From positions 22,948-86,947 of the forward strand of contig JAIORK010000036.1 of assembly GCA_021108215.1 (NCBI GenBank): a DNA stretch of 64,000 nucleotides, in the 5' to 3' direction. Shown here piece by piece: positions 4,380 through 58,500 of the stretch. A program made the position numbers and the translations under genes. The notes below the pieces were generated by a model. That model made no database searches and was not told the origin of the DNA. It saw only the letters and a list, made by a program, of their open reading frames with translations. This DNA comes from a bacterium (GTDB taxonomy: Bacteria > Oederibacteriota > JAAXVQ01 > JAUVAV01). Numbering within the stretch: position 1 is the stretch's first letter; each line of letters starts with the position of its first letter.

Positions 4380-5162
4380 ATGAGAAAAAAACTATCTATT
4401 CTGGCATGGGTCATTCCCCTATTCCTGGCTATGCAGATTCAGGCTGAGACCATGCCAACCGCAGTGGGCACACCAAGTCCTGCAGCAGAACAATCCGTCA
4501 TTCCTGAAACAACACCCACACCTGAGCCCCAACCGGTTGTTTCCAAGCCGGCAATGCTGACTGAGAAAGAAACCGCCATGATTGAAAATCCAGAATCATC
4601 CTACAAAATCAACAGCCTGTTTGAAGGCCGCATCACCTCAAACGGCGGATACGGTACTGCGGGTTATAAACCCACCCGTATCGACGGAGAGACCGGACAC
4701 ATGATCGGCGGCCGGGGTGGCTGGATCATTAACCATTCACTCATGATCGGCGGTGCGGGCTATAACCTGGCCGATTCCCAGATCCAGCGTGAGTTTGACG
4801 GTGAGATGAAGAAGCTCCATTTTGGTTACGGCGGTATTGAGTTGGGGTACACTTTTTTCTCGGATCAGTTGATCCATCTTGTGGTGCACACTTTGTTTGC
4901 CGGTGGCGGTATCGGCACCCTGGACAAAGTTTATGCTGATGAAGACGAAGACGGTAATAAAAAACATACTTGGGAAGGTCCGGTAGATACGGTCTTTGTG
5001 GTCGAACCCATGATCTATGCCGAGCTAAATGTAACCGAATGGTTCCGGGTCTGCCTGGGCGGCGGTTACCGGCATGTAGAAGGCTGTGAGCTCAAGGGCG
5101 TGAGCAATCAAGACCTGAGCGGTGCTTCCGCCGAACTACTCTTCAAATTCGGATATTTTTAA
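4380..5162 (+). CDS. Secreted probable outer-membrane beta-barrel protein with Pro/Thr-rich linker
   Basis: Signal peptide (FLAMQIQA), PT-rich linker, Gly/aromatic-rich alternating pattern, C-terminal FKFGYF with terminal Phe (outer-membrane protein signature). Confidence 0.45.
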   Translation: MRKKLSILAWVIPLFLAMQIQAETMPTAVGTPSPAAEQSVIPETTPTPEPQPVVSKPAMLTEKETAMIENPESSYKINSLFEGRITSNGGYGTAGYKPTRIDGETGHMIGGRGGWIINHSLMIGGAGYNLADSQIQREFDGEMKKLHFGYGGIELGYTFFSDQLIHLVVHTLFAGGGIGTLDKVYADEDEDGNKKHTWEGPVDTVFVVEPMIYAELNVTEWFRVCLGGGYRHVEGCELKGVSNQDLSGASAELLFKFGYF

Positions 5163-5770
5163 TCGTAAAAATCCACAGGCTTACCCGGCATTCGCCGGGC
5201 AAGCTGCCCATTGTATTCGCGCCGGCACGATAAAAAAACAACAACAAGGCCAGGCAGGACATATCCCCGGCTTGGCCTTGTTATATTTCCAGTAAATAGG
5301 CCACCCGCAAGCCGGCACGATAAACATCCGCCCAATGGGATTGCTGTTTGGCTTCAGGTTAATGAAAATCCTGCCAACGGATATTCCGGTGTTTCACATA
5401 ATCATCCCAGACGATCCGCTTGTGCTGAAGTCCGGCTGCCTGAAAAAACATTTCCAATGCAGGTATGGTGAGCAGCGTAAGCATACTTAAGGATTTCCCT
5501 TTGGAATCTTTCGCGCTTTCCTGCAGACAATAATCCCGTTTCTGCGTTTGGGAGCATTATAGCACCAACCCAAACTTTTCTCTGCGTCTGTAAAATGATT
5601 TTTTCATCAGTCTTTCGCCGGCATTCTTTTTTCCGTCCCCGCGTTACCTGTATTCGGCATTTCTATAAAAATGCATTAATGGGTTGATTTTTCTTTGAAA
5701 TATGGTAAAACGTCTATTCTCACGATCTTATTTATCCAAGACACATTCTCAATAGCTGGAGGGCACAAAC

Positions 5771-7702
5771 ATGACAGAACCAACTGTAGAAAAACTTGAA
5801 TTCAAAACTGAGGTCAGCCAACTGCTTGATCTTGTGGTCCATTCCCTTTACTCGCACAAGGATATTTTTCTGCGCGAGCTCATTTCCAATGCCTCGGATG
5901 CGATTGACAAACTCCGTTATCAGGCTGTAACCCAGAGTGATCTTACGGGTGATGATGCTGACTGGAAAATAAAAATCAGCCTGGACAAAGAAAACAACAC
6001 ACTCACCCTTTCCGACAACGGCATCGGCATGAATCATGATGATCTGGTCAATAATCTCGGTACCATTGCCAAATCCGGCACCAAAGAGTTTTTGGCCACC
6101 TTACAGCAAAGCAAGGATAATGTTAATCTCATCGGTCAATTCGGCGTAGGCTTTTATGCCTCCTTCATGGTCGCTGACAAGGTCGAGGTGGTTTCCAAGC
6201 CACCCCAGGACCCGGCGCACCGCTGGGTCTCGGACGGCAAACAGGGCTTTGAGATCACGCCGGATGACAAATCCAAGCGCGGCACGGATATTATCCTTCA
6301 TCTCAATGAAGAAAACCGGACCTATCTGGAAGAATATGAAATCCGCTCTCTGGTTAAAAAATACTCTGATTTTGTCGAGTTCCCGATTTTAATGGATGTG
6401 GAACGTGAGGAAACCCCGCAAGATGCCGAGGGCAAACCGATCGAGAATGCCAAACCAGAGAAAAAAATCATCACCGAGACGCTCAACTCTATGAAAGCAA
6501 TCTGGGCCAAACAAAAAAAAGATGTCACCCCGGAAGAATATCATGAATTTTACCGGCATGTTTCCCATGATTTCACCGATCCTCTAGAAACCATTCATTA
6601 TCACGCTGAGGGAACCATTGAATTCAAAGCCCTCATTTATATTCCCAGTCAGGCACCTTTTGATCTTTTTATGCGCGATTCCCAAAAGGGCATCCAATTA
6701 TATATCAACCGGATTTTTATCATGAGTGATGCCAAAAAACTTATTCCAGCATACCTGCGCTTTCTCAGAGGGGTTGTGGATACCAGTGATCTGCCGCTGA
6801 ATGTCTCGCGCGAAATGATTCAGCAGGATGCCCAGTTGGAAAAAATCAGTAAAAATATTGTCAAGAAAACCCTGGCTACACTCAAAACCATGAAGGATAA
6901 GGATTTTGATAAATATCTGAAATTTTACAAAACCTTCGGCACGGCATTAAAAGAAGGCTTGCACTATGATCATGATAACCGGGAAGCCATTGCCGAACTG
7001 CTGCTTTTTGAGAGCACCAAAACCGAGCCGGGTCAGCTGCGTTCCCTTGATCAGTATTGTTCGGATATGCCGTCTGAACAAACCGCCATCTATTATCATA
7101 CTGCCGAGGACCGGGCATTGGCACTCGCTTCGCCCTATCTGGAAACTTTCCAATCCAAAAATTGGGAAGTCCTGCTCATGTTGGAAGCCATTGATGAAAT
7201 TGTTCTGCCTGATCTTTTTGAATACAAGAAAAAACCGGTCAAACCGATCAATCGCGGGGATGTTGATTTAAGCAGCGAAGAAAAAGAAAAAGCCGAGGCA
7301 GCTCAAAAAAAAGCCAATGAAACCTATAAAGATCTACTCGCTTATATACAGAAAAAACTTGAAAATAATATCAAAGAAGTCCGTTTTTCAAAATTACTCA
7401 AAGACAGCCCGGCCTGCCTGGCATTGGATGATGCCGGCATGACCCGCCAAATGCAGGAACTCTTTAAAGCCATGGGCAAAGAGTCGCCTGAACAAAAAAA
7501 CATTCTGGAACTCAATCCCAATCATAAGGTTGTAGAAACCATGAACACGCTTTTCCAGGAAAACCAAGCCTCAGAAAAATTATCCGACTATGTCTCTTTG
7601 ATCTACGATCAGTCGCTGCTTACCGCCGGGTTCAAGGTCAAAGATCCCCTGGCATTTTCAAAAAGGCTGACACAATTGATGGTGGGACCAACCGCTTCCT
7701 AA
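5771..7702 (+). CDS. htpG: Molecular chaperone HtpG (Hsp90)
   Basis: N-terminal HATPase motif LRELISNASDAIDKLRY, GxGxG (GQFGVGFYS), 643 aa; canonical Hsp90 architecture. Confidence 0.95.
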   Translation: MTEPTVEKLEFKTEVSQLLDLVVHSLYSHKDIFLRELISNASDAIDKLRYQAVTQSDLTGDDADWKIKISLDKENNTLTLSDNGIGMNHDDLVNNLGTIAKSGTKEFLATLQQSKDNVNLIGQFGVGFYASFMVADKVEVVSKPPQDPAHRWVSDGKQGFEITPDDKSKRGTDIILHLNEENRTYLEEYEIRSLVKKYSDFVEFPILMDVEREETPQDAEGKPIENAKPEKKIITETLNSMKAIWAKQKKDVTPEEYHEFYRHVSHDFTDPLETIHYHAEGTIEFKALIYIPSQAPFDLFMRDSQKGIQLYINRIFIMSDAKKLIPAYLRFLRGVVDTSDLPLNVSREMIQQDAQLEKISKNIVKKTLATLKTMKDKDFDKYLKFYKTFGTALKEGLHYDHDNREAIAELLLFESTKTEPGQLRSLDQYCSDMPSEQTAIYYHTAEDRALALASPYLETFQSKNWEVLLMLEAIDEIVLPDLFEYKKKPVKPINRGDVDLSSEEKEKAEAAQKKANETYKDLLAYIQKKLENNIKEVRFSKLLKDSPACLALDDAGMTRQMQELFKAMGKESPEQKNILELNPNHKVVETMNTLFQENQASEKLSDYVSLIYDQSLLTAGFKVKDPLAFSKRLTQLMVGPTAS

Positions 7703-10676: not shown

Positions 10677-12977
10677 TTATCCGCTTATCTTGATTTGCCC
10701 TCTCAGCTCTTTGGCTGCTGCAACCATGTTGTGCAAGGCATCGTTGACTTCAGGCCAATTTCTGGTCTTCACTCCGCAATCAGGATTAATCCACAATTGT
10801 TCAACCGCCATAACTGCCATTGCTTTTTTCATCCTATTGATAATTGCTTCCTTTTCCGGAACAAGCGGTGAATGGATATCATAAACTCCCGGACCGATAT
10901 CATTGGGATACTTAAATTCACCAAAGGCCGTCAAAAGCACCATATCCGACCGCGAGGCCTCAATCGATATAACATCTGCGTCCATTGCGGCAATGGCATC
11001 CAAAATATCCTCAAAGTCCCCATAACACATGTGCGTATGAATCTGCGTTTCATTCTTAACCCCCGCTGATGCCAATCGAAAACAATCCACTCCCCATTTC
11101 AGATATGCGGGCCATTCGGTTTTTTTCAGCGGCAACCCTTCCCGCAAAGCCGGTTCATCAATCTGTATCACATGAATACCCGCTCGTTCCAAATCAGCTA
11201 CCTCATCCCGAATCGCCAAGGCGATTTGTTGACAGGTATCCTTCCTCGGCTGATCATCACGTACAAAAGACCATTGCAAAATAGTAACCGGTCCGGTAAG
11301 CATGCCTTTCATTGGTTTTTTCGTTAAAGATTGTGCAAAAGAACTCCACGCTACGGTCATCGGTTCTTTTCTTTCCACATCTCCATAAATAATCGGCGGT
11401 TTGACACAGCGAGACCCATAGCTCTGTACCCATCCGTTTTTAGTAAAGACAAAACCATCCAGATGTTCACCAAAATATTCAACCATATCCGTACGTTCAA
11501 ATTCTCCATGCACCAATACATCCAGGCCTATCTCTTCCTGAAATGCGATACACTTTCTTGTTTCTTCCTTTAAAAACTGTTGGTACGCTTCCTGATTCAA
11601 TTTCCCTGATTTTAAATCCCGTCTTTTCAAACGAACCGATTGCGTCTGCGGAAAAGATCCGATCGTTGTTGTCGGCAACAAAGGCAGCCGGAATTTTTCC
11701 TGCTGCATCTTTTTCCGTTCATTAAACGGAGCATTTCTGGCCAGCATCCGGGCAGTAACTTTGCGACCCCGTTCTTTAATCCGTAATTGATTGACTTTTT
11801 CCGATTTTCGTCTGAATTGAACAGCTGCCTGTCTTTTGGTTAATTCATCAGCTATTACACTCTTTCCTTGAGTGCCCACTTTTCCTAAAAGGACTATTTC
11901 ATCCATTTTTTCTTTTGCAAAACACAGCCAGGATTTAATCTCCTCATCAAGCTCGGTTTCTTCTTCCAGGCCAAACGGAACATGCAATAACGAACATGAA
12001 GAACTAATGATTACATTATTTTCACCCAGCTTGGTTATCGCTTTTTCAATCATTGGAATAAAAATCCCCAGATCGCTGCGCCAGATATTCCTCCCATTAA
12101 TCACACCCAGAGACAATTGTTGATCCGGTCTGATGATTTCCAAAACCTGATCAAGTTGTTCCGGCGCTCTAACAAGATCAACATGTAAACCATCGATTGG
12201 ACAATTGACAATGTCATTTAAATAATTTGTGATACCGCCAAAGTATGTGGTTAATTGTATTTTCCATCTTGAATCTACTGATGATAATTGTTTATAGGTT
12301 TTATGAACAGCTGCAGCAACGTCTTCTGCCCGGTCCAAAACCAAACAGGGTTCATCCATCTGAATCCAATCCGCCCCGGCTTCCGCCAATTTATCCAATA
12401 TAGCTTCATAAACCGGCAAAAGTAATGGCAATAATGTTAATACTGATGCCGCGCCATCAACCATTCTTCCCGACAAAAGATAAGAAACCGGCCCAAGCAA
12501 AACAGGCCGGGTATGAATCCCCATTGCCTTGGCCTCTTCAAATTCCCGAACCGCTTTCAATGCATAAAGTTTAAATTCCTGGTTTTCTTTAAATTCAGGA
12601 ACAAGATAGTGATAGTTGGTATCAAACCATTTGGTCATTTCCATGGCGGGAATATTCTGATTGTCGTTTTTTTTACCGCGTGCCATTGCAAAATATAAAT
12701 CAAGATCAATATCACCGTCATTCCAATTGTAGCGTTCGGGCACGGCACCTACCATACAAGTCGTATCAAGAACCTGATCATAAAACGAAAAATCATTGGA
12801 AGGAATAATTCCCAATTGATGTTCCTGCATTAGCCGCCAGTGAGCGACTCTTAATGCTGAAGCAACCTCAAGTAATTCTTCCTTATTTATTTCCCCCCTC
12901 CAATATTTTTCCAGAGCTTTTTTAAGCTCGCGTTTTTTTCCCATTCTGGGAAATCCTAAAACTGCAGTTTTGGCCAT
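10677..12977 (-). CDS. metE: 5-methyltetrahydropteroyltriglutamate--homocysteine S-methyltransferase (cobalamin-independent methionine synthase)
   Basis: N-terminus MAKTAVLGFPRMGKKRELKKALEKYW and C-terminal Zn-binding region are typical of MetE; ~766 aa after start reassignment to the ATG preceded by AGGGGG (the listed ORF has a 38-aa extension). Confidence 0.93.
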   Translation of the reverse strand: MAKTAVLGFPRMGKKRELKKALEKYWRGEINKEELLEVASALRVAHWRLMQEHQLGIIPSNDFSFYDQVLDTTCMVGAVPERYNWNDGDIDLDLYFAMARGKKNDNQNIPAMEMTKWFDTNYHYLVPEFKENQEFKLYALKAVREFEEAKAMGIHTRPVLLGPVSYLLSGRMVDGAASVLTLLPLLLPVYEAILDKLAEAGADWIQMDEPCLVLDRAEDVAAAVHKTYKQLSSVDSRWKIQLTTYFGGITNYLNDIVNCPIDGLHVDLVRAPEQLDQVLEIIRPDQQLSLGVINGRNIWRSDLGIFIPMIEKAITKLGENNVIISSSCSLLHVPFGLEEETELDEEIKSWLCFAKEKMDEIVLLGKVGTQGKSVIADELTKRQAAVQFRRKSEKVNQLRIKERGRKVTARMLARNAPFNERKKMQQEKFRLPLLPTTTIGSFPQTQSVRLKRRDLKSGKLNQEAYQQFLKEETRKCIAFQEEIGLDVLVHGEFERTDMVEYFGEHLDGFVFTKNGWVQSYGSRCVKPPIIYGDVERKEPMTVAWSSFAQSLTKKPMKGMLTGPVTILQWSFVRDDQPRKDTCQQIALAIRDEVADLERAGIHVIQIDEPALREGLPLKKTEWPAYLKWGVDCFRLASAGVKNETQIHTHMCYGDFEDILDAIAAMDADVISIEASRSDMVLLTAFGEFKYPNDIGPGVYDIHSPLVPEKEAIINRMKKAMAVMAVEQLWINPDCGVKTRNWPEVNDALHNMVAAAKELRGQIKISG

Positions 12978-13059
12978 CCTCGGGCCCCCTTTCAAAATAA
13001 AAAACCCTGACCTGTCATGCACGGGGCATAAAACAGACCAGGGGATCATTGAAAGTCCT

Positions 13060-13265
13060 GCCTTCCGATGATGCTTTCCCGGCTGCTTCACCCCAATCCA
13101 CGAGGGTCAAACAAGTTTTTTGTCTTAAGCAGGTCTTCTGGCTTCCGGATCGTTCTACTAACCCAACCTTCCCATCCGTATTGAATAGTGGTCATTTGGG
13201 TGTTCGTCACCGGTTACAGCGGCGGGACCGCGACGGACTTGCACCGTCTTCCCTTTTCATCCTCT
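13060..13265 (-). promoter_or_regulatory. Cobalamin (AdoCbl) riboswitch in the metE leader
   Basis: Minus-strand sequence GGGAAGACGGTGCAAGTCCGTCGCGGTCCCGCCGCTGTAACC...GCCAGAAGACCTGC matches the conserved cobalamin riboswitch core (GGTG.AA.TCC, CCCGCCGCTGTAA, B12-box GCCAGAAGACCTGC). Followed by a hairpin/U-tract before the metE RBS. Confidence 0.8.
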
Positions 13266-13382
13266 CGCGAGGAACATAAGACTTTTTTTATTAGATAGAT
13301 TTTATCGTTATAAAATTGAAAGTCAATCCTTAACTTACCGTTCCACATTTTTTTCGCGTTTTTTAGTGTGTCATGGAGCTGG

Positions 13383-17450: not shown

Positions 17451-17487
17451 GCAACCCATCCGACAACTCGTTGTATAGGTTTTAATT

Positions 17488-17523
17488 AAAAACCCCCGTA
17501 CCTTTTGGTGCGGGGGTTTTTAA
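17488..17523 (+). terminator. Rho-independent terminator of cspA
   Basis: AAAAACCCCCGTACC-TTTTGG-TGCGGGGGTTTTT hairpin plus T-run 38 nt after the stop. Confidence 0.7.
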
Positions 17524-17597
17524 TTTGGGGTAGCGCTACCCTACTGCTCCCCATTAACAAAAGAAGAGTAGTATAAAAGCTCTTTATTTTCCTACTA

Positions 17598-18320
17598 CTA
17601 ATAGCACTCATAGTACGGTGGCTTTTTGGGTGTTGGATATATTTTAGCCGAATAGTGTATGTTTTTTATCTTGTCACGAAATTTGTTTTGCAAAATAATA
17701 TTATTTCTAATTGCTGAAATATACTTATCCAGCGCTATTACTAAATCAACCTTTAAGGCATTAATTGATATCGGCAACCAATATCCAGCATAGTTATTCA
17801 AATGCGTTATTTCTCCGGCAGAATGAACTTGCACTATTTGGAAGTGTTTAACATCAAGCCTTTTTTCAAATATTATTTTGCCATCATTATCTGCTATTTG
17901 GAAATTGTGGCTGTAACTATTTCGTTCACCGTCTTCATCAGAAAATACCAACCACTTTAATATCGCTTTTTTACTTTCGAGATCTATTAATAGATTTTGT
18001 GGATGAAATCTATGACACAATCCATGTCGATACATGTAATAAAACCATTTAACTTCCTGGTCTTTGTAAATACTTGTGTCAAAATAATTACGAATAAATC
18101 CTAACTCAACATCCTCACCATCTTTCCCGAAGGGTCTTTGACCATGAAGATATTCACTCAATTCCAGCACATAACTAAAAAACATCAATGGAATAGTAAA
18201 CTCTCCTATCCCTGCTTTTAGAAGAGCACCCATTTCTAAGAGGATCGAGTTTTTATAATCTTTATCCAAATATTCGATTATCTGGTCACTGCTAACATTT
18301 TTAAATAATTTCCAAGACAT
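17598..18320 (-). CDS. Hypothetical protein (240 aa), second gene of the uncharacterised two-gene island operon
   Basis: Intact AT-rich ORF 32 nt downstream of the 777-aa gene on the same strand; no recognisable catalytic motifs. Confidence 0.5.
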   Translation of the reverse strand: MSWKLFKNVSSDQIIEYLDKDYKNSILLEMGALLKAGIGEFTIPLMFFSYVLELSEYLHGQRPFGKDGEDVELGFIRNYFDTSIYKDQEVKWFYYMYRHGLCHRFHPQNLLIDLESKKAILKWLVFSDEDGERNSYSHNFQIADNDGKIIFEKRLDVKHFQIVQVHSAGEITHLNNYAGYWLPISINALKVDLVIALDKYISAIRNNIILQNKFRDKIKNIHYSAKIYPTPKKPPYYECY

Positions 18321-18352
18321 ACCTCATCTCCATTTTAGACCACTTATTGATT

Positions 18353-20686
18353 TTATTTAATCGGATGTTTAGAAAGAATTTGTCGTGCTAATTCTTCTCC
18401 GTCATTTGGGCCTGGAAATCCACCTCTTTCCCGTAATCGTTCTTCAAGTTGTTTTTGTCTAAGTAAAATATGTTTTTGTACATTTTTCCATTGTTCTTCT
18501 GTGAAAACCTTCGGTTTTGTTTTAATTTCTTCGTCAACCTTGTTTGCCATATGTGTATTGTTTTTTGCACGCATTACTAATTGAATAGCATAAAAATGTG
18601 CATATATATCACCAATTGCGTAATCATCAGGATTTTTAGAAATTTCGCAATATGATTCCAGGATTGAGCGTATATTTGAAATACATAAGAGTAATACATC
18701 TTGCCACCACTCTCGGGTATAAAATAAAAGGCCTATGTACACCATAGAATCACATGCAATATCAGTCCATTCTTTAAATATGCTCTTCTTTCTATCAAAA
18801 GCAACCCAGTAAAATGACAAAATCCACGTGAATTTATCAACTAATTCTTTCACATCATTTTGGTTAGATCGTAGTGGATTATCTAATATCTGACACACAA
18901 CTTTAGCAATATGCTTAATTAGCTCATTAATCTCCCAAATAAGAAAACTATCTCCAAACTCATTTTTTTCTGCAACATTGCGCAAGTGCCGTGCAATGAT
19001 GTCTGTCATGTCTATTAATTCGTAATATGGATTTGTCGCATCTCGTTCAGGATCTACTTTCGGAAATATAGTTGCAGCCATAGCGAATAAATTCCCGAGT
19101 GAAGTTTGTTCGACAAGACTATATGCCTTTGTAAACGGATGATTCATTGATAGTCTTCCTTGAAGAGTTTCACTAATTATTGCAAAGGGCGCTAAATTTC
19201 CAAGTTTTTGAAAAACTTGGCCAAGTACTTCTTTGAAGTAATAATCTTTATTCCGAAGCATATGGTCAAGGATGATAAAATACTGTTTAATAACTTCTTC
19301 TGCTAATACAGGATTGCGGTTAATATAGAAGTACTGAGCAATTTCTGATATTCCATTTATAACTGGCAAGTGAATGTCTGAGTCATCAACATCCTTCGGA
19401 GTACATTTAATAATTCCAGAAAGCATGCCGCTCGTCTGAAACGGCACCTCATCAAGCCCTTTTGTTTGGGCAATCCTCACGCATGACAACATGTAGTTAA
19501 TTGGTTTCATAGACAATGGTGCAGTGTTCGGCCGGTATTTTCTTGCTCCTAAATTTGCTGTGTGGATAGTAATTTTCTTGTATGCTTCAGAAACACTTAA
19601 AGCTGCGGATTCATCATTTTGTGATATAGCAATACGGCTAATTTCATTTAACATTTCATAGGAACAGCCTGTAACTGCTTCTACATCAGATTGGGAAGTT
19701 AACAGCAATGTATCTGGGCAGGGCAAAATTAGTAAATTTAGCTTTCTTGCAGATAAATAATACATAGTCAAATGAGCAATCGCATACACAGCCGATTTCG
19801 TTAATAGTTTCTCATTTCGAGAAATAGCTTTTACTGCGATCTCAGATAAATCATTAATCCAACTATTGATAGTTTGGGGATAGCCGAACACTTGAGGATA
19901 ATAAATCGTTTCTATATCCTCAATTACCACTCCCTGCTTTTTTTCTTCCGGGAGTAATTTATAATGAAGTCTTGCTGATCGATTAACTGTCTTTTTTATA
20001 CGATCAATTGTTCTCATTGCTTGCTTGAGAGCAAGATTTGTTGAATAAGTTGGATCTAACAGCTTGCATATATGACGATGATACAAGCGTAGCAGATCAA
20101 GACTAAATCCCAGAGTTAATATAGCAACAGCTAATTTCAAGTTTTCTGAAACTCCAGCGAATCCACCCGCAGAAAAAGCAAAGCACGCTATACACAATAT
20201 CGCAAGAGCTACAAACGATGCATTTGTAATTAAGTCTCTCCGATAAAGACGGACAATTGAAGATGACCAAGCTTCTGCTGCACGTTGTATTGGTATAATT
20301 GATAGGGTTAATACAAGTGCCAGAATTGTTCCGTACGTGGCACCAAGTTGAATGAGCATTTTATCTATTGATTGCGTTGTGTTTAATGCTGTTCGCAAAG
20401 GCGGATAACCCAGAATAAATGATGCTATTATAAGGCCAATAATACCTATCATAATCTTGCTTGTTTTCAAAAGCAACCCACGACTAAACGAAGTAATATA
20501 AAACCATAAACGAACAACTTTTATTGTCAAATACGTTTTTATTCGCGTTATTATAGTTTTCAATCCATCACGTAGCGACATAATCATTCGTTTGAAATAT
20601 TTCACTAGTTTTGGCCACCATAGTATTACGTTTGTTGACCATAAATTGCGAATTTTAAAGTATGATTTGTTTTTATTTTGGTTCAT
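18353..20686 (-). CDS. Hypothetical large polytopic membrane protein (777 aa; N-terminal ~4-5 TM helices plus ~550-aa alpha-helical soluble domain)
   Basis: Hydrophobic segments (IGIIGLIIASFILGY, YGTILALVLTLSIIPI, FVALAILCIACFAFSAGGF, LAVAILTLGFSL) followed by a long helical domain. No P-loop, nuclease or protease motifs recognised. AT-rich codon usage distinct from the backbone. Confidence 0.55.
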   Translation of the reverse strand: MNQNKNKSYFKIRNLWSTNVILWWPKLVKYFKRMIMSLRDGLKTIITRIKTYLTIKVVRLWFYITSFSRGLLLKTSKIMIGIIGLIIASFILGYPPLRTALNTTQSIDKMLIQLGATYGTILALVLTLSIIPIQRAAEAWSSSIVRLYRRDLITNASFVALAILCIACFAFSAGGFAGVSENLKLAVAILTLGFSLDLLRLYHRHICKLLDPTYSTNLALKQAMRTIDRIKKTVNRSARLHYKLLPEEKKQGVVIEDIETIYYPQVFGYPQTINSWINDLSEIAVKAISRNEKLLTKSAVYAIAHLTMYYLSARKLNLLILPCPDTLLLTSQSDVEAVTGCSYEMLNEISRIAISQNDESAALSVSEAYKKITIHTANLGARKYRPNTAPLSMKPINYMLSCVRIAQTKGLDEVPFQTSGMLSGIIKCTPKDVDDSDIHLPVINGISEIAQYFYINRNPVLAEEVIKQYFIILDHMLRNKDYYFKEVLGQVFQKLGNLAPFAIISETLQGRLSMNHPFTKAYSLVEQTSLGNLFAMAATIFPKVDPERDATNPYYELIDMTDIIARHLRNVAEKNEFGDSFLIWEINELIKHIAKVVCQILDNPLRSNQNDVKELVDKFTWILSFYWVAFDRKKSIFKEWTDIACDSMVYIGLLFYTREWWQDVLLLCISNIRSILESYCEISKNPDDYAIGDIYAHFYAIQLVMRAKNNTHMANKVDEEIKTKPKVFTEEQWKNVQKHILLRQKQLEERLRERGGFPGPNDGEELARQILSKHPIK

Positions 20687-20788
20687 ATAATCCTCTGAAT
20701 CTATTTTCCTGTCAGCGAAATATAGGGCATTATCGTCAACTTTTAGCGGAATAGCAATTCAAAATATATTACACCGTAAATAGCACCG

Positions 20789-20983
20789 TTATTTTATACA
20801 TGACTGTTTCTTTATGGCTTTTACTACCAAATCACTGATTTCTTGCATTATCTCTGGATCGTATTGGATAAAATCAAGTCTACCGCTGCTTTTATCTTGG
20901 TTTTCTTTTACTACTTCTCGATCCATACGTTCAGTTATGATTTGGAAGACCTTTATATCACCCCGTGCCGCTTGTTTGATCAT
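20789..20983 (-). CDS. Small hypothetical protein (64 aa from ATG; open frame continues ~45 codons upstream without an ATG)
   Basis: In-frame upstream region (back to a TGA at ~21120) encodes a GNPCGAKCGVSHW Cys-rich motif but has no canonical start; possibly a degraded gene or a non-AUG start. Confidence 0.25.
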   Translation of the reverse strand: MIKQAARGDIKVFQIITERMDREVVKENQDKSSGRLDFIQYDPEIMQEISDLVVKAIKKQSCIK

Positions 20984-21119
20984 GGCGCCTGCAACCTTTT
21001 CCTGGCTGATACTGCCAGTCTCAAACTGTTCCTTGATAACAACATTCCAGTGACTGACTCCACACTTGGCACCGCAGGGATTTCCGCTTTGTCCCTTTCT
21101 TCTAATTAATTCTTTATAA

Positions 21120-21147
21120 ACAAAAAAGAGCCTCCCTTTCGGGAGGC
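21120..21147 (-). terminator. Terminator hairpin after the XRE regulator gene
   Basis: AAGAGCCTCCC-TTTC-GGGAGGCTCTT perfect stem followed on the minus strand by TTTTTTG. Confidence 0.5.
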
Positions 21148-21149
21148 TC

Positions 21150-21359
21150 TTAAAGATTCATTAGGTCCTTTAATTTAATCCCCAGCCCATGAGCTATCTT
21201 AGCTAGAGTGGTGAATTGCGGGTCCACAAGACCTTTTTCGATCTTACTTAGGTTGCCTTTGGACATGCCGTTTTCATAAGCTAGGTGTTCCAGGGTAATC
21301 CCCTTCTCCTTCCTTAGCTTATGTATCCTCATGCCCAGTTTTTCGGTTAATTGGCTCAT
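21150..21359 (-). CDS. XRE-family helix-turn-helix transcriptional regulator (Cro/CI-like)
   Basis: 69 aa with HTH (ITLEHLAYENGMSKGNLSKIEKG). Confidence 0.7.
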   Translation of the reverse strand: MSQLTEKLGMRIHKLRKEKGITLEHLAYENGMSKGNLSKIEKGLVDPQFTTLAKIAHGLGIKLKDLMNL

Positions 21360-21647
21360 AATGGAGTTGATTTTACAATATTTTAGGTTTATAGTAGTTT
21401 CTTATAAGAAACTTTTGGAGGTTAAATATGCAAATCTTAAAATCTACAATTCCTTATGTCATTGAATTTTCACCGGATGACATCAATTATTTACATTTGG
21501 CCTGTCATTATTATAAAGATTTACTGAAAAATAATAAGGACATGAAAAAAATCAAACGACGGGATAGACTTAAGCATCTAAACCAAATGATAACGCTCAT
21601 TGATTTGATGATGTGAGGATTATCAAAAAAATATTTTTATATTTGTT

Positions 21648-22214
21648 CTATTTACTCTGCATTGCTAATAGCTCCGCCTTTTTTCCCTCCATCGGGGCTG
21701 AAATATGTATTCGTGATTTTTCTTTTTTACGCTTCTGGCCTCCCTGGTTTAATTTCGAGAGGTTTTCAGATATAAATCTATCAATATTCTCTTTAGCTTC
21801 CACATGAAAGCGAGCCACTCCGTTTTTAATATCCACATCTTTACCAGCCATGTGTATCAATTGATCAAGATACATTTTTACTTTAAATGCATGATATTTA
21901 ATCAAATCAACAATTTTTACCGAAGGCTGGCGAAAACCAATTTCCAAGTGAAGCCCAAGGACGCTTGCATAATTCAATAGATCACCAACAGCGATATCTT
22001 TGTCATAAGAGGATTCGATTTTGGATATTTTCCCCTGGGAACAACCAACTTTTTTCGCCAGTTTGGTCTGCGTGAGTTGGTGTTTGCAACGCAACATGAG
22101 CAGGAATTTGGAAATCATCCGGTTTTCGATTTCATACGCTACGCTTTTCTTGAATTCCTCATCCGTTGAAAGCCCTTCCATCATTTTCATAACATTTTCA
22201 TATTTTTTCGCCAT
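21648..22214 (-). CDS. HigA-like antitoxin / XRE-family HTH protein
   Basis: HTH (LTQTKLAKKVGCSQGKISKIES) in a 188-aa protein; start overlaps the stop of the upstream toxin-like gene (toxin-first HigBA arrangement). Confidence 0.6.
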   Translation of the reverse strand: MAKKYENVMKMMEGLSTDEEFKKSVAYEIENRMISKFLLMLRCKHQLTQTKLAKKVGCSQGKISKIESSYDKDIAVGDLLNYASVLGLHLEIGFRQPSVKIVDLIKYHAFKVKMYLDQLIHMAGKDVDIKNGVARFHVEAKENIDRFISENLSKLNQGGQKRKKEKSRIHISAPMEGKKAELLAMQSK

Positions 22215-22585
22215 TATTGTCCCCCCTGTTTCATACCCTTTACCTTTTTCTTGTATTCCTCAATATCCCTACTCTGGGACCTCTTATCCCCTATTCCTAA
22301 AAGCACAACCCTCTTTTCCTTTACGTCGGAATAGATATAAAGCCGTGTTTCCTGGAGCTTCTTTCTTATTCCTCCACATCTTTGGTCAATCGCTTTGATG
22401 CCCATGGGTTCCGGATAGACAAACCCCACCTGGACCAACGAAGGCGACCCACACTCACACAAAGTCCTAAAATACGTGTCCAGGTTGTTCAAAACGCACT
22501 TTAATTCATCTTTGTGCTTTTTTTGATAGTGCTTGTGGTCCCTCTCGAAGGATTGCGTCGGTTGGAGATGCCATGGTTCCATCAT
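22214..22585 (-). CDS. RelE/HigB-like type II toxin (addiction-module killer family)
   Basis: C-terminal RLYIYSDVKEKRVVLLGIGDKRSQSRDIE resembles the HigB/RelE-like killer signature (...Y..vvLL.ggdKs.Q..DI); 123 aa, coupled to the downstream XRE antitoxin. Confidence 0.5.
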   Translation of the reverse strand: MMEPWHLQPTQSFERDHKHYQKKHKDELKCVLNNLDTYFRTLCECGSPSLVQVGFVYPEPMGIKAIDQRCGGIRKKLQETRLYIYSDVKEKRVVLLGIGDKRSQSRDIEEYKKKVKGMKQGGQ

Positions 22586-23034
22586 CGGCTCAATCCGTAG
22601 GTATTGGTATAATTATTCCATATTGGAATATTATCTCTTTTGGTTATATTTGTCAACGCTTCCATAAAACGTTTCCCTCGAATAAGTATCTTGCGTACCC
22701 TTTATTCGTTAGACAATTTTTTCGAGAGTTTCATGCATTTATTACTATTTTTTTTATTCTTTTTACGGATTGATATTGAGGTTGTATTAAGGACTCCTAC
22801 AAGGAATATCATGGTTTTTGGATAAGATGGCTGAAATGAGATAAGGGAAATTGGCTGCTGTGCTCACAGAGTTCTCTTCGCATGAGATTCCCCGTTTGGT
22901 ATCTAAGAAAAACAGAAAAAACCAATCTTCACTACTCGGGAATCGGTTACTACGGTCGCAACATCATGTTGCTCCCTGCGTAACCCCGCCTCGACAGCTA
23001 GCCAAAGACATCTCGTTTTTCATCCCAAAAAACT

Positions 23035-23403
23035 CTATTTTCCTGCTTCCTTTTTATCCAAACCCCTCACCAGTCCGTTGATCATTTTGCAAATTTCATT
23101 AAGATTTTCGTTCAAGTCTAGACAGTTATCTGAATTTATTAATTGTTTGCGTTTACATACTTCAATAATCGGTATACATTCCTGAGCAGATCCTCTAGCA
23201 ATCCAAAAGAACTGTTTGCGTTCTTTTGGATGCCATCTACCGTTTCCTTCTGCCAAATTAGCCGATATGGATAGCGCTGCCCGATTGAGCTGATCAATAA
23301 GGTAATAGTTGCCTTTCGGAAATGTGTCGGTAAGTTTAGATGTCTTTTCTGCAACATCGACCGCTTTTTGGTAAACTTCCAATTTCTCAAACATGAAAGA
23401 CAT
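23035..23403 (-). CDS. Four-helix-bundle protein (23S rRNA intervening-sequence protein family)
   Basis: LEVYQKAVDVAEKTSKLTDTFPKGNYYLIDQLNRAALSISANLAEGNGR matches the family signature (vYq.a..l......FPk.e...l..Ql.RAa.Si..NiAEG.gR). Confidence 0.7.
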   Translation of the reverse strand: MSFMFEKLEVYQKAVDVAEKTSKLTDTFPKGNYYLIDQLNRAALSISANLAEGNGRWHPKERKQFFWIARGSAQECIPIIEVCKRKQLINSDNCLDLNENLNEICKMINGLVRGLDKKEAGK

Positions 23404-23602
23404 AGTTCAAACCTCCTATTTGGGTCCTTTATGGTATTAGACTGAAAATAGGAAGATTTCATGCTGGGAAAATGAAAAAAATACAAAAAAAATTGTGAAC
23501 AGCAGATCAGCTGAGCAGCAGACCGCCCTGAATCACATGTGATTCAGGACTCCACCAGAAATAGAAAACCCTGCACCTTATTGGTGCAGGATTTTCTATT
23601 TC

Positions 23603-23677
23603 TGGTAGCGCTACGGGGAATCGAACCCCGGCTTGATGACTGAGAATCATCCGTCCTAGCCGCTAGACGATAGCGCC
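23603..23677 (-). tRNA. tRNA-Glu (anticodon CUC)
   Basis: Minus strand GGCGCTATCGTCTAGCGGCTAGGACGGATGATTCTCAGTCATCAAGCCGGGGTTCGATTCCCCGTAGCGCTACCA folds as a cloverleaf. Anticodon stem GATGA/TCATC, loop TTCTCAG (CTC), T-loop TTCGATT, encoded CCA. Confidence 0.8.
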
Positions 23678-24133
23678 ATGAGCGAAGCGAATAGCTCTGC
23701 TGTTCTGCTGCTCTGATTTCAATAAATATGTACAAGCCAATTCCAACAACTTAAAAATATGATCAGCGGACCAGCCGATAGCAGACCGCTGGTTCGCTTT
23801 TTCCTGCTGTTCTGCTGCTCTGATGCTCACCTGCTCTGCAATTTCGCTTTTTCGAAATTGCGAACCCCGGCTTGATGACTGAGAATCATCCGTCCTAGCC
23901 GCTAGACGATAGCGCCATGAGCGAAGCGAATAGCTCTGCTGTTCTGCTGCTCTGATTTCAATAAATATGTACAAGCCAATTCCAACAACTTAAAAATATG
24001 ATCAGCGGACCAGCCGATAGCAGACCGCTGGTTCGCTTTTTCCTGCTGTTCTGCTGCTCTGATGCTCACCTGCTCTGCAATTTCGCTTTTTCGAAATTGC
24101 GAACCCCGGCTTGATGACTGAGAATCATCCGTC
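23622..24133. repeat. Tandem direct repeat, 239-bp unit x ~2.1, each unit starting with the 5' ~55 nt of tRNA-Glu (truncated tRNA copies)
   Basis: Units start at 23622, 23861 and 24100 with CGAACCCCGGCTTGATGACTGAGAATCATCCGTC... and are near-identical through ...CAATTTCGCTTTTTCGAAATTG. Copies 2 and 3 lack the tRNA 3' acceptor/T-arm strand. Confidence 0.85.
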
Positions 24134-24151
24134 GTCTTGCGCAGCAAGACA

Positions 24152-24235
24152 GCTCTGCTGTTCTGCTGTTCTGCTGTTCTGCTGTTCTGCTGTTCTGCTG
24201 TTCTGCTGTTCCGCTGTTCTGATGCTCTGCTGTTC
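24152..24235. repeat. Octanucleotide microsatellite (CTGTTCTG)n, ~10 units with minor variants
   Basis: CTGCTGTTCTGCTGTTCTGCTGTTCTG... directly read in sequence between the tandem repeats and tRNA-Gln. Confidence 0.8.
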
Positions 24236-24277
24236 TGATGTTCTGCTGCTCTGCCACTCTTTCTCACTACGAAAGAG

Positions 24278-24353
24278 TGGCTGCCGATCCTGGGCTCGAA
24301 CCAGGGACCCCCTGCTCCAGAGGCAGGTGCTCTACCAATTGAGCTAATCGGCA
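24278..24353 (-). tRNA. tRNA-Gln (anticodon CUG)
   Basis: Minus strand TGCCGATTAGCTCAATTGGTAGAGCACCTGCCTCTGGAGCAGGGGGTCCCTGGTTCGAGCCCAGGATCGGCAGCCA. Anticodon stem CCTGC/GCAGG, loop CTCTGGA (CTG), T-loop TTCGAGC, discriminator G plus CCA. Confidence 0.8.
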
Positions 24354-24449
24354 ACAATTCTTCACCGCGGAGACGCTGAGCACACAGAGTAAACCAAAAA
24401 TAAATCTAAACGACTTCAAATCTCTCTGCGTTCTCTGCAATAAAAAAAT

Positions 24450-25919
24450 TTAAATATCGATCCCCGCCGTTTTCAAACCTATTTCCAAACGGCTGATCGT
24501 TTTTTCCTTACCCAAAATTTCCATCACTTCAAAAATACCGGGTGATTGCATACGTCCCGTCAGGCTAACCCGCAAAGGATGCGCTAAAATCCCGAATTTC
24601 ACCTGCTTTTCTTCAATAAAACCCTTGAGGGATTCTTCCAATCCTGAAACGGAAAAGGATTCTACCATTTTCAATTTTTCGTGTAAAGCCTTAAATAAAA
24701 CCTGATTTTCCTTCATACTCGCTAATTTTTCCCGCGCTTTTTCATCTATTTTTTCCAAATCCGGCTCCTGAAAAAAATAATCCACCTGACCGGGCAGCTC
24801 CGTAAGCAGTTTAAATTTTTCCCGCACCAATTTGACGCAGGCTGTGGCATAGGTTGTATCGTCTTTATCAGATAAAACCCCGGTATTTCGTAAAACACTC
24901 AGCGCACGTTTAATGTAAACAGCTTCATCAATACTGCGCATATACTGCCCGTTCATCCAGGTCAATTTATCCGGATCAAAGACCGCAGGATTTTTACTGA
25001 CTTTTTTCAAAGAAAATTTTTCTTCCAGTGCTTGTTTGGAAAATAGTGTGGTTTTGTCATCAAATGCCCAGCCCAAGAGCGCTAAATAATTAATCATGGT
25101 TTCCGGCAGGTAACCCTCTTTGGCATACGCACCAATTGAAGTGGCGCCGTGCCGTTTGGACAACCGCGTCTTATCCGGACCCAGAATCATGGGAACATGC
25201 GCAAATTTCGGAAGCGGTTCATTGAGCGCCTTGTACACCGCAATCTGACGGGGTGTATTGGAAAGATGATCGTCACCGCGGATCACATGCGTAATTTTCA
25301 TGGTCACATCATCCACTACAACAGCAAAATTATAGGTCGGCAGACCATTGGTCCTAAACAGGACAAAATCATCCAGTACTTTATTTTCAAAAACAACTTT
25401 TTCCCGAACAGCATCCCCGATAATCGTCTCGCCCTCGGTCGGCATTTTCATGCGAATGGTATGCGGTTCTCCGGCAGCAACACGGGCTTTGGCCTCTGTT
25501 GACGGGATGTGACGACAAGCTCCGTTGTATTTGGGATCTTCATTTTTTTCCAATGCTTGCTTGCGCATACTGTCCAGGCTTTCTGCTGAACAAAAACAAT
25601 AATAGGCATCTCCCGAGTCAAGCAGCTGATTCACTTTCTCCCGATAGATATCCAACCGCTCTGTCTGACGGTAGGGTCCAAAATCACCGCCCACACCCGG
25701 CCCTTCATCCCAATTGAGGCCGAGCCATTTCATATCTTCAAGGATCATCTGCACAGATTCCTCGGTGCTGCGCTCAACATCGGTATCTTCCAGGCGAAGC
25801 ACAAAGGTCCCCCCCTGACGGCGTGCATAGAGATAATTAAAGAGTGCGGTGCGTGCGCCGCCAATATGCAGATGACCGGTCGGCGAGGGTGCAAAGCGGA
25901 CGCGAATGGTTCCAGACAT
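24450..25919 (-). CDS. gltX: Glutamate--tRNA ligase (GluRS)
   Basis: HIGH motif (PSPTGHLHIGGART) and KMSKS-type RLSKRHGA. Start reassigned to the second ATG (MSGTIRV...) because GGAGGT lies between the two ATGs. Confidence 0.93.
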   Translation of the reverse strand: MSGTIRVRFAPSPTGHLHIGGARTALFNYLYARRQGGTFVLRLEDTDVERSTEESVQMILEDMKWLGLNWDEGPGVGGDFGPYRQTERLDIYREKVNQLLDSGDAYYCFCSAESLDSMRKQALEKNEDPKYNGACRHIPSTEAKARVAAGEPHTIRMKMPTEGETIIGDAVREKVVFENKVLDDFVLFRTNGLPTYNFAVVVDDVTMKITHVIRGDDHLSNTPRQIAVYKALNEPLPKFAHVPMILGPDKTRLSKRHGATSIGAYAKEGYLPETMINYLALLGWAFDDKTTLFSKQALEEKFSLKKVSKNPAVFDPDKLTWMNGQYMRSIDEAVYIKRALSVLRNTGVLSDKDDTTYATACVKLVREKFKLLTELPGQVDYFFQEPDLEKIDEKAREKLASMKENQVLFKALHEKLKMVESFSVSGLEESLKGFIEEKQVKFGILAHPLRVSLTGRMQSPGIFEVMEILGKEKTISRLEIGLKTAGIDI

Positions 25920-38025: not shown

Positions 38026-38062
38026 TTTAAAACCTCATCACTATTTTAATTTCAGAACAGCA

Positions 38063-38130
38063 GAGCAGCTGATCAGCAGACCGCAGGTTCACTTTTTTGC
38101 TGTTCTGCTGTTCTACTGCTCACCTGCTCT
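38063..38130. repeat. Copy of dispersed ~85-bp CTGCTGTTCTGCTG-core repeat (also at 23771..23857 and 24010..24096)
   Basis: CAGCAGACCGCAGGTTCACTTTTTTGCTGTTCTGCTGTTCTACTGCTCACCTGCTCTAC closely matches ...CAGACCGCTGGTTCGCTTTTTCCTGCTGTTCTGCTGCTCTGATGCTCACCTGCTCTGC in the tRNA-Glu repeat units. Confidence 0.5.
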
Positions 38131-38180
38131 ACGATTGAATGGGAATAATTGTTTTTGGACAATTATTCCCATTCAATCGT
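38131..38180 (-). terminator. Perfect 22-bp-stem hairpin overlapping the guaA stop codon
   Basis: ACGATTGAATGGGAATAATTGT-TTTTGG-ACAATTATTCCCATTCAATCGT; one arm encodes the last residues TIEWE* of GuaA. Confidence 0.5.
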
Positions 38181-55548: not shown

Positions 55549-58500
55549 TCACCGACTGTATTTTTGCAAAATATTGCGAAACTCCATAAATCCTTTGCTT
55601 AATAAATAATTACAAAACTCTTCTGCTCTCTTTTTACTCGCTTGATGATTCTTACTGAAAACACTCTCGAGTATCGCCATAATCTCATCCTGATGAAACG
55701 CAATGAAATTTATTTCATTTTCCGCTAAAGCTACTAATATTTTAACAACTTCAGTTGGATAAGTTTCAACCATTGTTTTAAGTTGTTCCATAATTGGTGG
55801 AATTGCTTCGATATGCTTGGTTTTTTCCAGCACAAATAATAATTGATCAATCGCCCACTGCGAGTCACACTTCCCGGATCCAAACCAATGCCCAAACGCC
55901 GACATTTCATTCAAAAAGATTTCCGGACTCGTTGATAAAAAAAGCATTTTGCATCGCTTTTCCCACATTTTTTTTATGCGCTGCATTTCCATAGCTGATA
56001 AATTTTCCGTGCTCCCTAATATATCAAAACCGATCATTTGCATTGCTGTCCCTCTTAATTCATCCGGCGCTCTTTTCCAAAAATTTATAAAAATATCCGA
56101 TTCTAATTCCAGTTTTCCGCGAATATAAAACAACATCAGATGCCAAGCCAATCGCTTATCTTTTTCTTCCGCAACATCCTCAATTTCGTTGACTGCCCGA
56201 GCATACTCTGTTTTCAATATTTCAAAAACATTATCATAGGGCTGACACAACAAAATATATGCCTTCCAGGCCACAGCCCAATATTCACGTTCCCTCTCAT
56301 CTTCCGGGAATATCCGGGTCCGTGCTTTGGCTGACCATTCCGGTTTTACTTTTGCCAGCCAAGGAAACCAACGCCCGTATACCGAATGAATAGCCAAGCT
56401 GGAATCTTGCGTATGATCAAGATGTTTATCCAAAATCTTTTCAATTTCAGGCATCATTTCTTCTCTTTTATCCTCTTCAAAATCATCTGTTTGACTCTGG
56501 ATTTTATTTCTGTAAATCCACCACATATAATTCATAACTGCATGCATGGCTTTTCCGCGGGTAGAATTGATTGAACGGGAATATGGTTCCATGTCATGTG
56601 TGTTTTCATATTCACTTGTCGGATCCGAATCTTCGGTTAATGGCTCTAAAACAGTCCAAACGCTTTTCCGTAGCTTTAAGGGGATTAAATTTTTACGCAT
56701 ACCTTCAACCAGGCAGTCTGCTATCTCCCCCCTGGCTTGGCCCCTATCGTCCGCATTTTCCTCTTTTATTTCGCGTGACTGTCGCATCCACTGACCAAGT
56801 TCCAGCATAGACGCCCACTCCAGCTTTGTATTGGTATTACGGATCACTTCTTTAAATCCAAATAATATCCAAAATAAATAATTTGAAGTATATGGACTGG
56901 TAAGCCGGGTAAATTGCCGTGCCTCGACAGAATACAATTCAGGCCTGGCTTGCACCAAAGACGACAGCATTTGCGCCAATCCTTCCGCAGAAACGTCTCT
57001 GACTTCTGCTGATGGTTTCCAAGCGTTTAAAAATTCAACCAGCTTCTCAATTGGCAAGGCGGCTAACTCGTCCAGGGTTTTTGGGCTGGATTCCCATCCC
57101 CCCTCCACTACAACTCCGGTGTTTCTCTTTTTCTCCGCTACACCATATTCTTGAACTAATTTCGTATAATAAGGCTGCCATGCCGCTGGCAAAGCTTGGC
57201 CAAACCTGGCCAGACAATCCCTTTGCCAGTGCCGGCGAACTTGCTCAGCCTCATCTTTCCCGGGTTTTCTGTACCTCTTGTCAAAATCCGGCCCGTCTTC
57301 AACCCATTTTAAGATCATCGCCTGTTTATCCTGCGGTAAAAATCCAAAACCCTTTTCCAGCAGCGGTCCATATTCATCCCAGCATTCACCACTTGCAAAT
57401 AACGCCTTGTCTGATAAATATTTATCTGTCAGTTCCGGCGCTGACCCGGGACAAAGGCTTAATAAATGAAGCGCTATCCGCTTGAAAAGCATCCATGGTT
57501 TCTCGCTTGAAATTTTTACCAAAACATCAATACCTATAGTCGCATCCAATTGCGTGCCTGTCTTTAATATCAAATCGATTAGAATATTTCTAAGCTCGTA
57601 CATCTCATATTGCATTGGTTTTTCAATCTCCGGGCGCCAAAAAAAAGAATAATCATTATTATTTTCCGGTTCCTCATCCTTGGCTTGTGAATATCTCAAT
57701 GCCATATCCAACATCTCGCATAGCCATCGGAACACAGGAACACCGGTTGACTTTGCAAGTTCCGGAATAATCTTCTCCGTTATCTCTTTATACCGGGAAA
57801 TTTCTACTCTTGTTTTCGGATGCGGGCCATCCCAATAGCGCTCTGCGTTTTCTTTGCTCTTCTGCCAGCGAGGATCCGGGAGTATTACCAGCATTTTTTT
57901 CGCCAGCCCGAAAGCTTCCTCCGCTTTTCCTGCCAAAGTATAATACAGGACCAGTTCAGCCAAATGCTTGTCAAGCGGATAAAACAAATATTCATTTACC
58001 ATCCACTTGGCTGCTTTATCTATTAAACTCATAGCTATATCAATCGGCAGATTCAGCGTTGCTTTAACCAAACCATCAATAACATAGACATTTTGTGTGT
58101 CAGGGATGATTAAAATAATATCCGCAACTGCTTGGGGCGCTATTTTGGCCATCCGCACTAAATAACCGGATTCCGCCCAAAATGGAAACGTTATGGAACC
58201 ATCTTCATTTTGTAGCAGCTCCGGGGGACTTCGAAAAACTGATGTATCTTTTAGCCGTGCAAGCCATTTTGGATTAGAGCATCTTTCAAAAAAGTATTTG
58301 CGTATAAAATAGACATCAGGAATTTCTTTGTAGAGTTTTTCCGCATCCTTAGAAGTCGGATTATCTTTTTCCAGTAATTTATCCAGTTCGGCAATCAATC
58401 CCGAGCTATGATTGCGCAACGCATGTAAAATCCGCTTCAAATAAACATCCATGTCCGACAAGTTTTTTTCCAGATCACTTGGAGTCATTCGCGGAGCATC

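Follow-up and report, generated by a model that had tools for sequence, protein, structure and literature searches.

The window, which is the whole 64,000-nt stretch of DNA that was analysed, contains on its minus strand a glutamyl-tRNA synthetase gene, gltX (24450..25919), identified as an open reading frame (ORF) with an exact protein on record (MCD4813649.1, 'glutamate--tRNA ligase [bacterium]') and with the Pfam domains tRNA-synt_1c and Anticodon_2. Directly downstream of gltX and in the same orientation lie tRNA-Gln(CUG) (24278..24353; ARAGORN and Rfam RF00005, 65.7 bits) and an intact tRNA-Glu(CUC) (23603..23677; ARAGORN and Rfam, 58.5 bits). The sole promoter-like site returned by a promoter scan is a candidate sigma-70-like promoter, TTGAAA-18-TAAATT, located upstream of tRNA-Gln. 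The gltX side also encodes bactofilin, M23, parB and parA (Pfam). The source, an uncultured bacterium, resembles the FCPU426/Firestonebacteria lineage, its GroEL protein being 89% identical to a protein of 'candidate division FCPU426' and 85% identical to a protein of Ca. Firestonebacteria.

What lies between the two tRNA genes? Read in the tRNA sense, the order is tRNA-Gln, hairpin H1, the octamer microsatellite (CAGAACAG)n, palindrome h2, P, S, T5a-P, S, T5a-P-T3 and a terminator, where T5a denotes tRNA-Glu positions 1-22, P positions 23-56, T3 the last 19 nt of the tRNA and S a 183-nt spacer. All of these features are read on the minus strand. H1 (CCACTCTTTC-GTAGTGA-GAAAGAGTGG; 24254..24280), assigned by sequence reading and as the first helix of the fold, contains the CCA terminus of tRNA-Gln and is followed by the octamers (24154..24254), h2 (GTCTTGCTGCGCAAGAC; 24134..24150) and a partial third repeat unit that consists of the 34-nt fragment P (24100..24133). 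Repeat unit 2 (23861..24099) is composed of S (24099..23917) and a truncated tRNA-Glu of positions 1-56 (23916..23861), and repeat unit 1 (23622..23860) of S (23860..23678) and the first 56 nt of the intact tRNA-Glu. A hairpin, hS (GCAATTTCG-AAAAAG-CGAAATTGC), spans the novel joint of T-loop and spacer at 24077..24100, with a second copy at 23838-23861 (inverted repeat I11). The terminator hairpin (23554..23606; inverted repeat I6, 24 nt, 96% complementary; terminator scan) includes the CCA end of tRNA-Glu, and inverted-repeat and alignment evidence places beyond it, within 23497..23547, a small hairpin (23526-23547) and the remnant of an element described below (23497-23522).

Tandem Repeats Finder (TRF) resolves the repeat at 23622-24133 as a 239-bp period with 100% matches in 2.14 copies (TRF: 2.1). 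A script comparison shows 23622-23860 to be identical to 23861-24099, and 24100-24133 to be the first 34 nt of the unit. The description given in a first-pass annotation of this DNA, two and a bit near-identical 239-bp tandem units, is thus confirmed. The same annotation had each unit start with the 5' ~55 nt of tRNA-Glu, and here a correction is needed. A blastn-short search of the window with tRNA-Glu returns positions 1-56 at 23916..23861, truncated before the 3' T-stem strand and the 3' acceptor strand as had been described, but the third copy (24133..24100) holds only the internal 34 nt of positions 23-56, which span the 3' strand of the D-stem, the anticodon arm, the variable loop, the 5' strand of the T-stem and TTCG. 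The 5' 56 nt are therefore present twice, once in one truncated repeat copy and once in the intact gene itself. All tRNA-Glu pieces lie on the minus strand and upstream of the intact gene, arranged head-to-tail in a single phase, such that 34-bp direct repeats flank every 205-bp interval.

Could the truncated copies still act as tRNAs? ARAGORN finds only two tRNAs in the window, and Rfam at a permissive threshold (E<=1) returns these two and sub-threshold hairpin noise at the terminator, with no match on the truncated copies, which fold like shuffled sequence (z = +0.2). A cloverleaf rebuilt from a truncated copy and the next hairpin was considered and rejected, as no complement to the acceptor 5' strand is found downstream and the fold is no better than that of shuffles. 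With the 3' T-stem and acceptor strands missing, the truncated copies cannot fold or be processed as tRNA and are most likely inert passengers in the transcript of the Gln-Glu spacer. Given that tRNA parts are missing and that folding is weak, we infer that the array is a non-functional by-product.

The octamer array was described in the first-pass annotation as about 10 copies of an octanucleotide ending at 24235; the array is present, but it extends over 24154-24254 with a period of 8, 12.6 copies and 90% matches (TRF), and its longest perfect run is 7.25 units. The motif CTGCTGTTCTGCTG, allowing at most 2 mismatches, was counted 25 times where 0.24 would be expected, and 0 of 100 shuffles reach 25; the repetition is therefore not due to chance. 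A literature search with the octamer sequence found no papers. The ORFs that cross the region had been suspected to be spurious, and their relatives bear this out, being either the same locus (hypothetical protein K8S19_08155) or unrelated DNA in which (CAGAACAG)n arrays are translated as QQNSRTAE.

Each 239-bp unit also holds a copy of an approximately 85-nt element, here called element E, at 23987..24079 in unit 2 (covariance model (CM) R1, 96.9 bits; alignments; terminator-like site) and at 23748..23840 in unit 1 (CM R1, 96.9 bits). Element E consists of an octamer left arm of the CAGNNCAG type that follows GAGCAGGTGAGCA, a core AAAGCGAACCAGCGGTCT, a right arm that is partly complementary to the left arm, and a T-run; a terminator scan places a terminator-like site, ATCGGCTGGTCCGCTGAT and CATATTTTTA, in every unit. 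RNAalifold predicts a 22-pair hairpin in which 2 pairs are changed on both sides, and the folding z-scores are modest, at -1 to -2.3. An independent copy lies between guaA and a UPF0047 gene, 3' of guaA on the minus strand (38042..38133; CM R1, 96 bits), and adjoins a 22-bp perfect hairpin; for this reason the octamer motif must belong to a dispersed element. The right-arm-only remnant 3' of the tRNA-Glu terminator is orthologous to a complete element located 3' of tRNA-Glu in a relative, L075, which carries homologues at two orthologous sites (the Gln-Glu spacer and 3' of tRNA-Glu), and a further homologue follows tRNA-Gln in L078. In total, CM R1 recovers 2 independent loci and a half copy in the 64-kb window together with orthologous copies in L075 and L078, and the covariance model search found no further copies in the 136 kb examined. 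The start of the octamer array (CAGAGCAG…) resembles the left arm of element E and its end (…CAGCAGAGCT) resembles the short octamer run before the tRNA leader, which suggests that the array arose by fusion of these two runs followed by expansion.

A fundamental question is whether the repeated DNA is native to this locus. A closest-relative search among GTDB representative genomes, in which the species itself is absent, gave L005 as the only useful match, and L005 (64% identical) has a single tRNA-Glu and no fragments; L078 and L081 have tRNA-Gln without an adjacent tRNA-Glu. In L075, whose GltX is 68% identical, gltX is followed by tRNA-Gln, a hairpin (GCAATTTTGC-TTC-GCAAAATTGC), then AGAGCAAGTAAGCA…, a core GCGAACCTGCGGTCT (…GCGAACCTGCGGTCTACTGATCAAC…), an octamer-like run ending in GAGCT, GTCCTGCTGCGCAGGAC and an intact tRNA-Glu. 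The start of S, which comprises hS, CAGAGCAGGTGAGCA… and AAAGCGAACCAGCGGTCTGCT, is homologous to the first hairpin of L075 and its sequel, and the homologue of hS in L075 sits after the CCA end of tRNA-Gln. Moreover, the L075 homologue of h2, GTCCTGCTGCGCAGGAC, lies immediately next to the 5' end of the intact tRNA-Glu. This homology identifies S as the native Gln-to-Glu spacer, so that a full unit equals that spacer plus tRNA-Glu positions 1-56, and indicates that the native neighbor of h2 is the 5' end of tRNA-Glu. In the window this neighbor is P instead, and the upstream-most copy therefore occupies the ancestral position of tRNA-Glu, minus its first 22 nt. At the junction of P and S (…GGGGTTCG|CAATTTCG…) the T-loop meets the base that comes first after tRNA-Gln in the relative, the microhomology being only 1 nt (G), and this is the novel joint expected of a tandem duplication of the spacer together with tRNA positions 1-56.

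The observed anatomy, the homology to the relative's spacer, the missing integrase and the differing assemblies, the last two of which are detailed below, lead us to infer that the array is probably native DNA between tRNA-Gln and tRNA-Glu that was rearranged by slippage or unequal recombination, and neither foreign DNA nor a set of attachment-site scars. The events could have occurred in the following order. An illegitimate join with 1 nt of microhomology would have fused the tRNA-Glu T-loop (…GGGGTTCG|) with the opening base of the hairpin found after tRNA-Gln in the normal order, creating a duplicated block of spacer and tRNA-Glu positions 1-56. The upstream-most copy, which kept the ancestral palindrome h2, would later have lost its first 22 tRNA bases and become the 34-nt internal fragment. 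The resulting 34-bp direct repeats, 205 bp apart, would then have allowed slipped-strand mispairing or unequal sister-chromosome exchange to raise the number of units from 1.14 to at least 2.14, and since the two units are perfectly identical, spacer included, this expansion would be very recent. The octamer array, as the left arm of the lineage-specific hairpin element E, would have expanded by similar slippage. Direct repeats of this kind are classic substrates for both of these processes, as known from RecA-independent rearrangement of tandem repeats. Derivation from an ancestor resembling L075 in one duplication step was rejected, as the flanks of the 1.14-copy allele do not fit; a 22-nt deletion, a 16-nt leader that replaces h2 and a replaced hairpin after tRNA-Gln are needed as extra steps. 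The block's left boundary falls precisely at the 3' end of tRNA-Gln in the relatives, which is somewhat unlikely for random joining and speaks against a random illegitimate join.

Independent assemblies of the same population bear on both the structure and the copy number. The SPAdes contig L001 (ERZ26872896) matches the window at every aligned base over 6.86 kb, ends inside the octamers, and reproduces base for base the junctions of h2 with P, of P with the hairpin and of the tRNA with the terminator. The 141-kb contig L003 (ERZ26872904) is 99.96% identical over 7.8 kb, with all 3 mismatches in or next to the microsatellite, and octamers repeat perfectly there for at least 11.9 units, at which point the contig ends, versus 7.25 in the window, a difference of at least about 4 octamers. 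The basic structure and all its junctions are therefore real, and the microsatellite is polymorphic in length and sequence within the population. However, L001 holds h2-P-S-T5a-P-T3, or 1.14 units versus 2.14 in the window, and as both counts come from assemblies, either could reflect collapse or over-expansion. Is the second unit an artefact of assembly? By that account the true structure would have 1.14 copies, the second unit being a repeat loop traversed once too often, or the true number would exceed 2.14, the window giving just the shortest path through the loop. The loss of one unit in a contig from the same population that otherwise matches at all aligned bases would fit, as would the tendency of assemblies to break here: L001 and L003 end in octamers, and L002 (Logan) stops 30 nt into P, inside the 34-nt repeat. 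Moreover, an exact-protein look-up found no record of the 103-aa ORF that is diagnostic of two or more units, nor of the 151-aa ORF, and a metagenome scan for the novel junction GAAATTGCGAACCCCGG returned 48 loci, all chance or coding matches with no independent copy of the junction, of which the two longest (L056 and L032) fall in protein-coding sequence. Against this stand the upstream partial tRNA copy, both junctions and the octamers, all reproduced independently in L001, and the junction of the second unit itself (the 5' 22 nt of the tRNA, the 34 nt and the hairpin), which requires spanning k-mers or reads longer than 36 nt that, judging from how de Bruijn assemblers work, a normal assembler would not invent. 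We consider an artefact unlikely. The locus is a hotspot at which assemblies of this population from short reads are interrupted or may carry a wrong copy count. The replication slippage proposed in the first-pass annotation, with unequal recombination as its counterpart, is supported by the head-to-tail identical units, the 34-bp direct repeats, and the variation in unit and octamer number among assemblies that are identical in other respects.

Among verified cases the tyrT/tyrV repeat of E. coli comes closest, and by this comparison the present array would be a further example of a familiar type of event, an ordinary product of slippage or unequal recombination. In E. coli (NC_000913.3) TRF finds a 178-bp period with 3.1 copies (about 3.14) and 95% matches that starts in the 3' end of tyrV, in a region annotated rttR/tpr, and each unit ends in AATCCTTCCCCCACCACCA, the last 19 nt of tRNA-Tyr. 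The two arrays share a phase that starts inside a tRNA gene, head-to-tail units made of a tRNA piece and spacer, approximately 2-3 units and a fractional last copy. They differ in that E. coli repeats the 3' ~19 nt downstream of the gene, whereas here the 5' 56 nt or internal 34 nt are repeated upstream, as in a mirror image, and in that the copies in E. coli are divergent (95%) and give rise to rtT RNA and an annotated peptide, tpr, whereas those here are 100% identical and show no sign of a product. The tyrT repeat was reportedly generated and varied by unequal recombination, a view that is attributed to Egan and Landy in 1978 and to Russell et al. in 1970. The octamer array in turn resembles the simple-sequence repeats of contingency loci, in that a perfect short array (7.25 octamers), of the kind prone to slippage, varies in length and carries point variants between strains with otherwise identical genomes; unlike those repeats, it is intergenic between two tRNA genes and outside any reading frame or promoter spacer, and no phase-variable gene is evident.

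The E. coli analogue also raises the question of whether the array has a function, with units or octamers whose copy number tunes the output of tRNA-Glu(CUC), or which release a spacer RNA such as rtT, an RNA from the tyrT repeat that has been linked to the stringent response (bioRxiv 10.1101/2024.07.17.603846). Each unit places a terminator-like hairpin and T-run, and on this account perhaps a promoter, between the tRNA-Gln promoter and tRNA-Glu, element E is kept at orthologous positions in three species, and gltX lies directly upstream, all of which would suit such a role. However, the promoter scan finds no sigma-70-like promoter inside the 239-bp unit, one spacer without tRNA fragments suffices in relatives, the complete identity of the copies provides no evidence of selection, and the folding z-scores of element E are modest. 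A copy-number-tunable array is for these reasons regarded as improbable.

The least tenable explanation is that of serial integration and excision scars, offered in the first-pass annotation, in which the partial tRNA-Glu copies would be tDNA fragments displaced by an element that uses tRNA-Glu as its attachment site: the 56-nt copy is indeed a 5' end fragment upstream of and in the same orientation as the full gene, as in the islands recognized by Islander, and the 3' flank of tRNA-Glu is a variable low-GC block, but Pfam detects no integrase gene in the roughly 10 kb flanking each side (10.6-23.4 kb and the gltX-to-parA side), there is no genuine ORF between the fragments, which are 183 bp apart, the upstream-most fragment is internal to the tRNA (positions 23-56) and is of a kind that Islander rejects, the DNA between the fragments has its homologue in the native L075 Gln-Glu spacer, and the non-tRNA sequence is identical as well, as in a duplication and not in independent insertions, so that scars are very hard to credit. 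An island in the sense of Islander has an integrase, a fragment from an end of the tDNA and a distance of 2 kb or more between tDNA and fragment, every member of a tandem array having an integrase and a fragment of its own, and 5' fragments are in a minority (159 of 3919 islands) (PMC4383910); the present locus has no integrase, 183 bp in place of 2 kb or more, one internal fragment, and native DNA where an island would have foreign DNA. Any att-like signature at tRNA-Glu would lie on its other (3') side, and the low-GC block there encodes only HTH regulators and a 23S_rRNA_IVP protein, with no integrase found (Pfam, PADLOC, PHROGs). K8S19_08155 in the NCBI record is a translation of the repeat, and the region should be annotated neither as a protein gene nor as an attachment-site scar.

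The array, read as rearranged native DNA, leaves the question of what element E represents. REP/BIME sequences of enterobacteria and the STRR heptamer arrays of cyanobacteria are dispersed intergenic families of palindromic or short-tandem repeats. Element E would resemble them in being intergenic and hairpin-forming, in occurring at several loci with short tandem units, and in lying just 3' of genes or terminators; it differs in having octamers and a conserved loop core (GCGARCCNGCGGTC) between species-specific arms, and in its low copy number (2 loci and a half copy in 64 kb), with no RAYT-type transposase seen in the available DNA. We tentatively raise the possibility, which we hold to be considerably less probable than not, that element E forms a previously undescribed intergenic class within the FCPU426/Firestonebacteria lineage, whose octamer arms may expand as microsatellites and which, together with adjacent hairpins, may seed local rearrangements such as the partial tRNA-Glu duplications. 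Under the same doubtful reading, the class might be defined by the conserved loop core GCGARCCNGCGGTC preceded by GAGCAGGTGAGCA, by species-specific and mutually complementary octamer arms, and by a position immediately 3' of the terminator hairpins of tRNAs or genes.

The locus presents a clean and very young case in which short internal repeats and hairpins beside a tRNA gene would yield tandem duplications and pseudo-tRNA fragments. The lineage-specific hairpin and octamer element may merit its own study once the candidate phylum has complete genomes. If the tentative classification holds, element E would undergo concerted evolution within each genome, would destabilize tRNA loci, and would count as REP-like or as terminator-associated.

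The hairpin element E, whose octamer-built arms surround a conserved core (GCGARCCNGCGGTC) with the leader GAGCAGGTGAGCA, is a lineage-specific element. It was located at four sites in the window (23748-23840, 23987-24079, 38042-38133 and 23497-23522), at two sites in the relative L075 (4619-4730 and 5178-5271) and at one in the relative L078 (4629-4722), and at every one of these sites it is positioned close to, and 3' of, the terminator hairpin of a tRNA or a gene. The arms differ from species to species, and comparison of the element with Rfam returned no match.

The octamer of the window is also found elsewhere. In L069 (3020-3190; CP121794.1) and L072 (3375-3475; ERZ22155170), both of which are apparently genomes unrelated to the window's organism, the identical octamer forms perfect (CAGAACAG)n arrays with 12-16 units. 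The L069 array immediately follows an array of another octamer, (GGCACTCA)n. In the NCBI record, the repeat region of the window (23902-24267, minus strand) is annotated with a 121-aa product, 'hypothetical protein K8S19_08155' (P0004). The first-pass annotation had considered open reading frames here likely to be spurious, and this one was rejected as a real gene because its sequence merely translates octamers, the palindrome h2, the 34-nt tRNA-Glu fragment, spacer and the 5' end of a truncated tRNA copy.

In L075, the tRNA-Glu terminator hairpin (…AAAAAGGGGTGAACCATGTAAGGTTCACCCCTTT…; 5130-5190) has a near-exact second copy ~900 bp downstream, beside the cold-shock gene (6040-6095), and the block bracketed by the two copies contains element E and a remnant of a 23S_rRNA_IVP gene. 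L075 also has GTAG-type REP-like hairpins (GTAGGGGCG…CGCCCCTAC) surrounding tRNA-Gln.

In the window, a ~6-kb low-GC block (33-39%; 17541-23602) separates tRNA-Glu from the cold-shock gene. Most of this block is absent in L075, and homology to L075 restarts at or below 17490. At its far edge, within 17485-17541, lies an 11-nt exact match to the 3' acceptor strand of tRNA-Glu (GTAGCGCTACC) in the same orientation as the tRNA, with a terminator-like hairpin after it. The match (E=0.79, blastn-short) could be a displaced 3' tDNA fragment left by an old island whose integrase has since been lost, or it could be a chance match. Two large minus-strand ORFs in the block, at 18353-20686 and 17598-18320, encode proteins of 777 and 240 aa that could not be assigned to an informative family: neither had a significant match in Pfam, PADLOC or PHROGs. 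Likewise, a 1280-aa protein encoded at 55549-59391 (minus strand) has no informative family match, and its only recognizable domain is an N-terminal XRE-type HTH. Elsewhere in the window, a cobalamin riboswitch (13111-13294, minus strand; 124.5 bits) stands in the standard arrangement upstream of the cobalamin-independent methionine synthase gene metE (10677-13091, minus strand).

tRNA-Gln(CUG) comes after gltX at all five loci examined (window 24278-25919, L075, L005, L078 and L081), and tRNA-Glu(CUC) is additionally present in the window, L075 and L005. The synthetase gene therefore adjoins the genes of the tRNAs that GltX probably charges. JGI gives several homologues the name 'nondiscriminating glutamyl-tRNA synthetase'.
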